From: Escherichia phage PHB11
Sequence record: MK524176.1
Strand: one strand, 5' to 3'
Length of the DNA stretch: 64,000 bases
Shown here: positions 43,664 to 45,350 of the stretch, in pieces
Layout of the letters: each line of letters starts with the position of its first letter
How positions within the stretch are numbered: the stretch's first letter is position 1
Position numbers and translations under genes: made by a program
Notes under the pieces: model-generated
Told to the model about the DNA's origin: nothing
Databases searched by the model: none
Seen by the model: the letters and a program-made list of their open reading frames with translations, nothing else

Positions 43664-43925
43664 TATAAGGCTACTGCCATCCTTCCATACATTACCTTAC
43701 CTTACCTCACCTGACCTGACCTGACCCTACCTAACATTACCGTGCCACACCTCACTTAAAAACCCTCTTAAAAGACTCTTAAGTGATGTAAGTCTCATTT
43801 TAATGTAGCTGAGACTAACTACCCATACCTGACCGAACATTACTAGGCCTTACCAGACACTACAGAACAGGACAGCACCGCACCTTATTAAAAGACCCTG
43901 TTTAAAGACCTTTTAAAAAGGAGCC
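43664..43925. repeat. Mosaic repeat region R1 (G-depleted ACC-rich pentamer tract, two conserved hairpins, AAAAG direct repeats)
   Basis: Shares 13-45-nt blocks with 45064..45350; pentamer tract 43692-43735; hairpins CACTTAA..TTAAGTG (43753-43785) and AGTCTCA..TGAGACT (43791-43816). Confidence 0.7.
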
Positions 43926-43948
43926 TCCGAAGAGGCTACCTAGTCAAC

Positions 43949-44389
43949 TTAGAAAGGTTTTCTACGTTGCTTGTTAATGTTAGCTTTCATAGCAGCTAAG
44001 TGGTTTTGCTGTTCAATCAGTCGTGAGCGTTCTTGATGGCTAAGTTCCATAGTGTTCACATTCTCAATAGCTTGAGTGGCTTGCTTTAAAGCTCGACCAA
44101 TCTTACCAGACATTTTACGTTTTGCAATAGTTGCTTGATGTTTAGGTTCAACCACACGATAACCAACACCCATTGAAGCAACCAGATAAATCTTCTCTTC
44201 TTTAAGAAGCTTCTCAATAAACTTCTCAAGTCGGTTTAGACGTGTAAGTGCATAAGCCTTCATTTCATCTTCGTACTTAACAATGTCGCCTTGATAAGTT
44301 GGCTTCACAATACCTAAGAAGGTGTCCATCTCAGAATGTGATACAGTGTCACCGTAACTAAACTTTGCTGCTAATGCTTTTGTATTCAT
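43949..44389 (-). CDS. Hypothetical protein (cassette gene 2)
   Basis: 146-aa ORF; C-terminal basic region. Confidence 0.55.
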   Translation of the reverse strand: MNTKALAAKFSYGDTVSHSEMDTFLGIVKPTYQGDIVKYEDEMKAYALTRLNRLEKFIEKLLKEEKIYLVASMGVGYRVVEPKHQATIAKRKMSGKIGRALKQATQAIENVNTMELSHQERSRLIEQQNHLAAMKANINKQRRKPF

Positions 44390-44391
44390 AA

Positions 44392-44994
44392 TTAAACGTT
44401 ACCTTCTGAAATAACTTCTACAGAAAAACGACCAAAGCGTGGACGCCAATCACCTACACCACAAAGGTTACCAGCATTTTCCAGAACCATCAGGAGTTCC
44501 TCTCGTGTGATTTGCTCTTCATCGAACATCAAACCGAACTCTACAGACCAGTCACGGAAGATTGGACGGTAGCTCATAACTCGTGCTGTACCAATCTTAA
44601 CAGACTTAGCATAGATAAAGTCTGGATTCTTAGCAAGTTCTTGTGGGTTTGCTGGACAGTTCTTGATAGTCATTGGGAAGACTACATCTGTCAGCATAAT
44701 GGCTCGGTCAATTACCTTACCAAGTTTGTTGAGTTTTGCACCAGACTTGATGCAAGCCTCAATCATCTCACCGTTCATAACAAAACCTAGTTGCTCATCG
44801 TAGTAACAAGAAGTTACCAGTTGGCTTTCTGCTAAGAGCGCATAGTCTTCGTCAGTCTTTTTACGTTTACTGGACAGAGACTTGTGATATTTTGTCAGAG
44901 GATTTAACGGGTCTGACAACGTATCGTTATGGCTCAGGAAAGGACGAGTACCAGTGATTTTGATATTTAACAGTTTCATAGCATTTAGCTCCAC
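44392..44994 (-). CDS. Hypothetical protein (cassette gene 1)
   Basis: 200-aa ORF; no recognisable motif by eye. Confidence 0.55.
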
Positions 44995-45063
44995 ACTTTA
45001 GTTGATTGTTAAGTTGTTTGTAAAGAACCCTCAACAGAAGACTCTTTAGAAACTTGGTAGATT

Positions 45064-45350
45064 TTTAACGTGGCTACTACCATCCACCCATACCGTGCCA
45101 CACCACACCGGACTATACCATGCCCAACCCTACTACACCAGACCTTATTAAAAGACCCTCTTAAAAGACCTTTTAAAAAGGTAAGTCTCATTTTAATGTA
45201 GTTGAGACTAACTACCCATACCTTACCGCACCGGACATTACCGGACCGCACATCACCGCACCAAACCAAACATCACATTACCTGACCTCACCGCGCCTTA
45301 CCATACCTCACTTAAAAACCCCTCTTAAAGATTCTTAAGTGATGCTGGTG
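45064..45350. repeat. Mosaic repeat region R2 (same blocks as R1 in a different order)
   Basis: Blocks: GGCTACTACCATCC, ACCGTGCCACACC, hairpin AGTCTCA..TGAGACT (45184-45209), hairpin CACTTAA..TTAAGTG (45309-45341), TTATTAAAAGACCCTCTTAAAAGACCTTTTAAAAAGG; strongly G-depleted plus strand. Confidence 0.7.

Follow-up and report, generated by a model that had tools for sequence, protein, structure and literature searches.

What is encoded by the two repeat regions, strongly depleted of G on the plus strand, that bracket a pair of minus-strand genes between the DNA ligase gene and a gene for a 127-amino-acid (aa) signal-peptide protein in Escherichia phage PHB11? We addressed this question in a stretch of 64,000 nucleotides (nt) from sequence record MK524176.1, which we refer to as the window and in which position 1 is the first letter. 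A previous sequence-only reading of this DNA had regarded the gene pair as a cassette of unknown function, and had viewed the repeats either as flanks prone to recombination around a cassette that is mobile or can be exchanged, or as paired regulatory regions with structured leaders. Our analysis assigns the locus, with a probability of about 95%, to the type II VIPR systems of the SUSP1 clade; it would comprise the vipr and vap1 genes and four vrRNA genes and resides in a Felixounavirus. Nothing that we found contradicts this assignment. The label of an unknown function is therefore outdated, since the larger enclosed protein is Vipr; the RNA-guide nature of the repeats and their link to this protein had gone unnoticed in that reading.

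VIPR (Viral Interference Programmable Repeat) is a phage-encoded DNA-silencing system resembling CRISPR (clustered regularly interspaced short palindromic repeats) that was first described in two 2026 preprints (bioRxiv 10.64898/2026.04.26.720920, 10.64898/2026.04.26.720927). It consists of the RAMP protein Vipr, a vap gene, and flanking vrRNAs, each composed of 9-16 YNNGG repeats and a conserved tail that forms a pseudoknot in the SUSP1 clade. Small-RNA sequencing during SUSP1 infection revealed four vrRNAs of ~100 nt, one encoded upstream and three downstream, and these RNAs co-purify with Vipr. One Vipr protomer per repeat flips out the GGY triplet through contacts made by H17, D177, R138, W178, R179, E71, M72, and C173, and the NN dinucleotides pair with double-stranded DNA in an R-loop triplex in which one target base is skipped per unit. 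Binding of the Vipr-vrRNA complex represses transcription, so that rival phages and satellites are silenced, and vap1, which in type II systems codes for a predicted DNA-binding protein, enhances protection. Guide-specific repression has been shown for SUSP1 and is lost when the GGY motifs are mutated. Targets were identifiable for 20 of the 41 guides of the clade, 18 of these 20 guides target a satellite phage, and self-targeting is reported to be absent. VIPR has been put forward both as the ancestral form from which CRISPR RAMP proteins arose and as a programmable tool of a new kind.

Profile and structure searches with the two cassette proteins, a check proposed by the sequence-only reading, identified the larger one as Vipr, a RAMP protein, and yielded only weak winged-helix matches for the 146-aa protein. 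A family profile built on the larger protein retrieved the PDB chain 36pp_D, annotated as "SUSP1 Vipr protein", with an E-value of 2e-81. The protein is identical to SUSP1 gp039 at 190 of 195 positions (97.4%), and hence exceeds the identity of >90% to SUSP1 Vipr by which the SUSP1 clade is defined. Each of the GGY-contacting residues named above (H17, E71, M72, R138, C173, D177, W178, and R179) is present at the same position. While this gene had been recorded with 200 codons, translation most likely starts at the ATG at position 44979 and yields a protein of 195 aa, the length found in every annotated homologue that we retrieved and in the PDB chain. Members of the family have in common a strand at the N-terminus and a glycine-rich loop at the C-terminus, G-[IV]-G-D-[WYF]-R-P-x-x-G-x-F, and the loop is invariant across the family alignment. 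In an AlphaFold2 model (mean predicted local distance difference test score [pLDDT], 93.7), the protein resembles Csm3 and type VII Cas7 most closely (Foldseek, best E-value 3.6e-5); the model had 55 PDB matches at E<=1e-3, and the best 50 of these 55 all belong to CRISPR effector complexes of type III (Csm/Cmr) or type VII. Judged from this model, Vipr carries a minimal, Csm3/Cas7-like RAMP fold, a type characterised by an RRM core, a glycine-rich loop, and a thumb. Searches of Pfam and PADLOC gave no match, and the corresponding PHROGs family is one of unknown function. By analogy with SUSP1, Vipr protomers should polymerise along the vrRNA, each occupying a single repeat unit.

Since every gene from 40 to 50 kb is encoded by the minus strand, the locus is best read in reverse complement. 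Seen in this way, the G-depleted pentamers of the plus strand become tracts with the register (G/T/A)G(T/C)NN. The pattern (GGTNN)5GGT, with two or fewer mismatches, occurs 25 times in the 64 kb, exclusively on the minus strand and always inside 43684-43751 or 45092-45312, and was never found in 100 dinucleotide-preserving shuffles. Consistently, plus-strand CC dinucleotides at a 5-nt offset cluster in just these two intergenic regions in a scan of the 64 kb. A repeat search across 43560-45420 detected a 95-nt family with four copies (43694-43788, 43827-43921, 45087-45181, and 45250-45344) and a hairpin/tail block that is 97% identical between 43798-43829 and 45191-45222. The two repeat regions with their shared blocks are hence real and strand-specific. 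The regions downstream (R1) and upstream (R2) of the gene pair had been placed correctly, but their modules reach slightly further, covering 43650-43939 and 45053-45402, respectively. The two minus-strand genes are indeed bracketed by them. In sense orientation, the elements of the locus are arranged as follows.

45375..45402, minus strand: predicted sigma-70-type promoter TTGACA-16-TATACT, directly after the ligase stop codon; the best site in 42.5-47.5 kb, with 11/12 positions matching.
45347..45386, minus strand: inverted repeat GGTGAGTATAC...GTACTCACC with 11-bp arms, overlapping the -10 element of the promoter.
45309..45344, minus strand: leader B, copy 1, CATCACTTAAG-N-CTTAAGTG, containing three direct repeats that resemble TTAAGAG; precedes vrRNA1.
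45180..45308, minus strand: predicted vrRNA1 (129 nt); tract at 45218-45308 with 18 units, 14 of them canonical GGY; tail 1 at 45180-45217.
45145..45179, minus strand: leader C, copy 1, TTTTTAAAAGGTCTTTTAAGAGGGTCTTTTAATAA; precedes vrRNA2.
45053..45144, minus strand: predicted vrRNA2 (92 nt); tract at 45090-45144 with 11 units, 9 of them canonical GGY; tail 2 at 45053-45089.
44392..44979, minus strand: vipr, 195 aa, RAMP protein (Cas7/Csm3-like).
43949..44389, minus strand: vap1, 146 aa, directly downstream of vipr.
43915..43939, minus strand: intrinsic terminator AGCCTC-TTCG-GAGGCT plus T-run, after vap1; the only terminator-like site in 42.5-47.5 kb.
43885..43919, minus strand: leader C, copy 2; precedes vrRNA3.
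43788..43884, minus strand: predicted vrRNA3 (97 nt); tract at 43825-43884 with 12 units; tail 1 at 43788-43824.
43753..43787, minus strand: leader B, copy 2; precedes vrRNA4.
43650..43752, minus strand: predicted vrRNA4 (103 nt); tract at 43687-43752 with 13 units, 11 of them canonical GGY; tail 2 at 43650-43686.
43605..43633, minus strand: promoter-like sequence TTGACA-17-TATTTT for the downstream 127-aa signal-peptide gene; edge of the locus, outside VIPR.

This arrangement accounts for the mosaic order of blocks that had been noted between the two regions: R2 reads B-tract-tail 1-C-tract-tail 2 and R1 reads C-tract-tail 1-B-tract-tail 2, so that merely the leader types B and C are exchanged. 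The run of about ten pentamers described at 43692-43735 is part of the vrRNA4 tract. The four tracts, with 18, 11, 12, and 13 units and each with a conserved, structured tail of ~37 nt on its 3' side, fit the published description of vrRNAs. Written as dinucleotide (NNx) profiles, the guides are AT-AA-GC-GA-CA-AA-GA-TT-TT-GC-GA-GC-CC-AA-CC-GC-AA (vrRNA1), CT-GT-AG-TG-AT-AT-CC-GT-GT-AC (vrRNA2), GC-GC-CC-TC-AG-CT-AA-CT-AA-TC-CA (vrRNA3), and GT-AC-AA-TA-AG-CA-CA-CA-GA-AA-AA-AA (vrRNA4). Tail 1 of vrRNA1 consists of a handle of the pseudoknot type, GGGTAGTTAGTCTCAACTACATTAAAATGAGACTTACC, with a U-run behind it; tail 2 has the sequence GGGTGGATGGTAGTAGCC...CTACCA in vrRNA2 and GGAAGGATGGCAGTAGCC...CTGCCA in vrRNA4. 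A 13-mer, GGTGTGGCACGGT, is common to the 3' end of the vrRNA2 tract (45090-45107) and the 5' end of the vrRNA4 tract (43740-43752); it corresponds to a block that had been listed among the shared repeats as ACCGTGCCACACC. Since it lies inside the guide tracts, it was left either by recombination or by the duplication of part of a guide.

To place the window among its relatives, we compared the locus with that of ten related phages and SUSP1 (11 relatives). The window derives from a Felix-O1-like myovirus (Felixounavirus), and its 3.6 kb at the locus are 99.2% identical to Escherichia phage vB_EfeM_pEP20 and match 259 phage records, nearly all of them from Felixounavirus. Across the ten phages and SUSP1, leaders and tails are conserved, and leader block B precedes tracts in all relatives as well, whereas the tracts cannot be aligned despite flanks that are 92-95% identical. 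Each region contains one to three tract-plus-tail modules among the relatives, and the intergenic distances, those of SUSP1 included, vary from 240 to 531 nt downstream of vap and from 276 to 623 nt upstream of vipr; the lengths of the tracts differ between phages in steps of 5 nt. In 302 units, the second position of the triplet is G in 99% and the third is a pyrimidine in 100%, while the first is less strict, with 76% G, 15% T, 9% A, and no C at all. Both NN bases after the triplet are almost free, and these bases as well as the number of units vary across the 11 related phages. The relaxed first base of the triplet is also common in the SUSP1 tracts. In tail 1, the helix formed by positions 9-15 and 28-34 is paired in 99% of the cells of the alignment, and both partners have changed in three of its pairs, one of which has become G-U; its stem AGTCTCA/TGAGACT becomes AATCGGA/TTCGATT in some phages. 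Likewise, the stem TGGTAG/CTACCA of one copy of tail 2 is replaced by TGGCAG/CTGCCA in the other copy, a compensatory exchange of T-A for C-G.

The agreement with SUSP1 extends to the layout of the entire locus. In both phages, vipr-vap occupies the same slot between the DNA ligase gene and the 127-aa gene in the same gene order, and leader B/C, tract, tail 1, and tail 2 modules of the same kind make up the intergenic regions of SUSP1, with sense-strand tracts and vrRNAs on both sides. Vap1 is identical to SUSP1 gp038, encoded directly downstream of SUSP1 vipr, at 144 of 146 positions (98.6%). The two phages differ in that SUSP1 belongs to the genus Suspvirus while the window belongs to Felixounavirus, with pEP20 as its closest relative, and in that the window carries two upstream and two downstream vrRNA genes compared to one and three in SUSP1. 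All four guides of the window differ from those of SUSP1, and one of them has 18 units.

A connection between such tracts and a Vipr-like protein emerged independently from viral metagenomes, without recourse to annotation and before we became aware of the VIPR preprints. A scan of IMG/VR at the DNA level for (GGTNN)6GGT revealed, trivial microsatellites aside, hypervariable arrays on many unrelated viral contigs among the matches listed. In this set, the arrays most often have 10-14 units. They lie in sense orientation among co-directional genes, with a stop codon on one side and a ribosome-binding site or a terminator on the other. When the open reading frames (ORFs) of array loci were clustered, one family of about 180-210 aa, in which no Pfam domain was recognised, dominated. 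Homologues of the 195-aa protein of the window were present in at least 37 of the 64 array loci analysed and lay within 150 nt of the array in at least 28; blastp comparisons of the window protein with this array-linked family gave E-values down to 3e-43.

Some of these metagenomic loci are organised differently. The jumbo-size contig IMGVR_UViG_3300029288_001872 (189.6 kb) carries at least eight hypervariable (GGTNN)16-21 arrays placed singly between genes (loci L016-L019; e.g., 10110-10205, 11453-11548, 12667-12742, and 13819-14027 in L019). These arrays start no more than ~140 nt, and mostly no more than 20 nt, past a stop codon and abut an intrinsic-terminator hairpin. No Vipr homologue was found in the ~35 kb of this contig that were examined; either vipr is located elsewhere on the contig, or the vrRNAs are orphan or trans-acting. 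In loci L012 (6113-6498) and L129 (3395-3843, minus strand), 6-7 vrRNA-like arrays abut each other directly 3' of a Vipr homologue and ahead of one strong terminator. Each of these arrays ends with GGTAAGGCTAATG and has no long tail, a layout unlike that of the window which probably represents another VIPR type.

The second protein of the cassette is less well defined. Vap1 had no match in Pfam or PADLOC, its PHROGs family is one of unknown function, and no homologues were found outside this phage group. A single-sequence model (pLDDT 75) gave weak matches to winged-helix regulators with a best E-value of 0.075, which suggests that Vap1 is probably a winged-helix-like DNA binder. This weak likeness is compatible with the label of a predicted DNA-binding protein given to vap1 of type II VIPR, but is no proof of it.

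Taken together with the published work on SUSP1, these data suggest how the system may operate. Transcription of the upstream vrRNAs and of vipr-vap would likely start from the promoter at 45402-45375, which is kept in all relatives compared, including the VIPR-less phage EC6. The inverted repeat that overlaps its -10 element is conserved in 11 of 11 relatives and likewise in EC6, and could be either an operator or an element of read-through transcripts. Tail 1 with its U-run may end a vrRNA; the T-run of the terminator after vap1 extends into leader block C. As in SUSP1, one Vipr protomer would bind and flip out each GGY, giving rise to a helical filament along the vrRNA, and the exposed NN dinucleotides would pair with double-stranded DNA in an R-loop triplex in which every third target base is skipped. 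Binding to DNA would repress transcription, an effect that vap1 would strengthen. In the SUSP1 clade, the natural targets reported for the guides belong for the most part to a satellite phage and to other mobile elements that compete with the phage. Recombination between the leader and tail repeats may in addition reshuffle the guides and could remove the entire cassette.

A few observations fit the assignment to VIPR less neatly. Only 6 of the 12 units of vrRNA3 are canonical GGY, the others being TGT or AGT; the fourth tract of SUSP1 likewise has about half of its units in canonical form. The 18 units of vrRNA1 are above the range of 9-16 given in the first preprint, with the second mentioning up to 30. 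The pseudoknot helix 3-6/17-20 of tail 1 fits a pseudoknot, but it is invariant across the relatives and hence gives no covariation. From the DNA sequence, we infer that the four RNAs are expressed and processed in the phage studied here and that leader blocks B and C may be promoters or processing sites. Furthermore, exact scans of IMG/VR with a skip of 1 nt, performed with vrRNA2, vrRNA3, vrRNA4, and both halves of vrRNA1, uncovered no credible natural target. Their sole hit was judged to be due to chance because it lies on a contig with 68% GC and agrees with the guide at only 27 of 36 NN positions in total.

Other searches for targets were carried out as well. No guide matched the window itself above shuffled-guide controls (65-68% of the NN positions), which is consistent with the reported absence of self-targeting. 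Since the two-of-three code of the guides cannot seed BLAST, 5,426 E. coli genomes were searched by blastn with R1 and with a head-gene module; there was no match, and the reported satellite was not retrieved in this way. When 157 guides were compared with ~1.2 Mb of sequence, skip rules of 0-2 gave best matches that were about equal, and a skip of 3 found only the arrays themselves.

Could the repeats instead be primarily recombination-prone flanks, comparable to the promoter-stem-loop cassettes of T4-type phages, without any role as RNA guides? The distribution of the cassette speaks in favor of this explanation. Comparison of related genomes, which the sequence-only reading had suggested as a check, showed that the cassette is variably present: vipr-vap DNA occurs in 117 phage records compared to 259 that match the wider ligase region, and VIPR-less, EC6-like Felixounaviruses make up more than half of the records. 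In EC6 (Felixounavirus, JX560968.1), the ligase gene is followed directly by the 127-aa gene, and the two are separated by a single spacer of 273 nt (2877-3149). This spacer is composed of the promoter, the hairpin, leader B, a degenerate tract of 9 units (5 of them canonical GGT), and an R1-type tail 2; leader, tail, and promoter of this solo module are intact. Such a fused spacer is the expected product of a deletion or recombination event between the flanking repeat regions. Leaders, tails, and guides have also been shuffled between phages, as every combination of leader and tail occurs among the relatives, and the vrRNA4 guide is found in ASO1B and, with two units fewer, in LMP25. As far as these sequence comparisons go, the cassette is accessory and the recombination-prone character of its flanks is a real property, so that the idea of an exchangeable cassette stands in this part.

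The flanks are, however, not primarily recombination elements. Recombination does not call for a strict register of G at position 2 and a pyrimidine at position 3 with free NN dinucleotides and length steps of 5 nt, the enclosed protein is the structurally solved Vipr that binds exactly such RNA, and the same linkage of array and protein recurs in unrelated phages that lack these flanks. These findings indicate that recombination is a side effect of the repeats rather than their function, since the repeats are guide-RNA genes. We therefore regard a pure recombination role as very unlikely. Within the VIPR assignment, we consider it a rather doubtful proposition that the leader and tail repeats form a built-in recombination system that exchanges, multiplies, and removes entire guides and alters their length by 5 nt at a time, and that a solo vrRNA of the EC6 type is loaded by the Vipr protein of a co-infecting, VIPR-positive relative or acts as a decoy that captures this Vipr.

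Even less probable, and barely credible in our view, is the interpretation of the repeats as ordinary paired regulatory regions in which the pentamer tracts are a neutral, microsatellite-like filler. It would account for the strong promoter and the canonical terminator at the edges, for the annotation of the tail hairpins as terminators in the record of ASO1B (which also places a promoter at the position of the 43605..43633 site), and for the absence of a significant fold in the tracts by themselves (z about 0). Neutral filler would, however, not keep G at position 2 in 99% of the units and a pyrimidine at position 3 in all of them while NN is free, nor would it co-occur with a RAMP homologue across diverse phages. 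The repeats match published vrRNA genes and are not primarily promoter and terminator elements of the ordinary kind.

TRAP (trp RNA-binding attenuation protein)-like binding arrays, antisense Rho rut sites, or G-rich R-loop/G-quadruplex origin elements have as little to commend them: the period of 5 with about 11-13 units resembles the 11 triplets of TRAP, the complement is C-rich and G-poor, the G-rich non-template strand lies downstream of a strong promoter near replication genes, and arrays adjoin terminators in some metagenomic phages, but there is no TRAP-like gene (Pfam assigns neither of the cassette proteins to a family), terminators and tracts do not form alternative pairings, a T or A is frequent at position 1 and breaks the GG runs of a G-quadruplex, neither rut sites nor R-loops need a strict pyrimidine at position 3, and the partner protein has been structurally characterised as a filament-forming RAMP. 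These ideas were abandoned because the linkage of arrays and protein and the identification through the PDB and the preprints emerged. Two further candidates were dropped at the same point, namely boxA/boxC-like antitermination (block C contains GGGTCTTTTAAYAA, which resembles the rrn boxA) and Shine-Dalgarno-like standby sites.

The VIPR locus shares features with several known systems. In Class 1 CRISPR-Cas systems, in which Cas7/Csm3 assembles on the CRISPR RNA, one also finds a RAMP fold, one protomer per RNA register, periodic base flipping, and a variable guide capped by a conserved handle. These systems have a register of 6 and 6, in contrast to that of VIPR, in which 5 nt of RNA correspond to 3 nt of target; VIPR guide information is non-contiguous (NN only), the system is encoded by the phage, and repression instead of cleavage is reported. 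No CRISPR array with repeats of 25-40 nt and unique spacers was found in 43560-45420, where we detected only leader/tail blocks and period-5 tracts. No further cas gene turned up in the two-gene locus, and Pfam recognised only the DNA ligase and a helix-turn-helix regulator among 8 neighbouring proteins; neither result stems from a Cas-specific search. The full annotation of the closest relative lists no cas genes. TRAP is a closed 11-mer ring that binds (G/U)AG-N2-3 repeat RNA and acts in attenuation without a base-pairing guide. It resembles VIPR in that a fixed triplet recurs about every 5 nt, about 11 times, with one subunit per triplet, and differs in forming a ring, while VIPR is a RAMP filament with the information in the spacer dinucleotides. 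The PeSL elements of T4-type phages, reportedly termed "mobile regulatory cassettes" by Arbiol et al. in 2010, likewise consist of a promoter and a stem-loop, occur repeatedly next to accessory genes, and can bring about the gain, loss, and shuffling of these genes, as illustrated here by the EC6 remnant and by the reshuffling of modules. PeSLs have a regulatory role only, whereas the repeats of the window encode guide RNAs. Literature searches on Felixounavirus repeats, pentanucleotide repeats, and GGTNN yielded nothing relevant.

Further differences between the window and its relatives became apparent in the vicinity of the locus. Some relatives have 150-200 extra bases, absent from the window, after the stop codon of the ligase gene and ahead of the VIPR promoter. 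The extra DNA of LMP25, tootiki, and VSe102 contains a small hydrophobic ORF on the opposite strand, which is annotated in LMP25 and VSe102; fjerdesal and SUSP1 carry a different insert between ligase and promoter. At 47704-50433, the window possesses a single ORF of 909 aa, whereas in pEP20 (37307-40808) two DNA polymerase coding sequences are split by an "endonuclease VII" gene, which suggests the insertion of a mobile endonuclease in pEP20 that is absent from the window. An Rfam search at the gathering threshold detected 24 tRNAs in the window and no match at the VIPR locus; the 24 tRNA genes are clustered on the plus strand at 10515-16097, as is typical of Felix-O1-like phages.

Since the locus is orthologous to the type II VIPR system that has been published for SUSP1, the finding as such is already known, and there is no new biology beyond that of the 2026 preprints apart from a few details. 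These are the presence/absence polymorphism with its solo remnant, guide modules that have been shuffled, a GGY triplet whose first position is relaxed, and four new guides; the guide with 18 units is a further point of interest. VIPR represents a minimal form of RNA-guided DNA binding that makes do with one protein of ~20 kDa and one guide of roughly 100 nt. The assignment would provide names and a mechanism for two "hypothetical" genes and for four unannotated RNA genes that recur in no fewer than 117 sequenced phages of the Felix-O1-like group. Several of these phages are in use, or have been proposed, for typing, biocontrol, or therapy. Felix-O1-like phages that carry VIPR may silence satellites or competing phages in their hosts.

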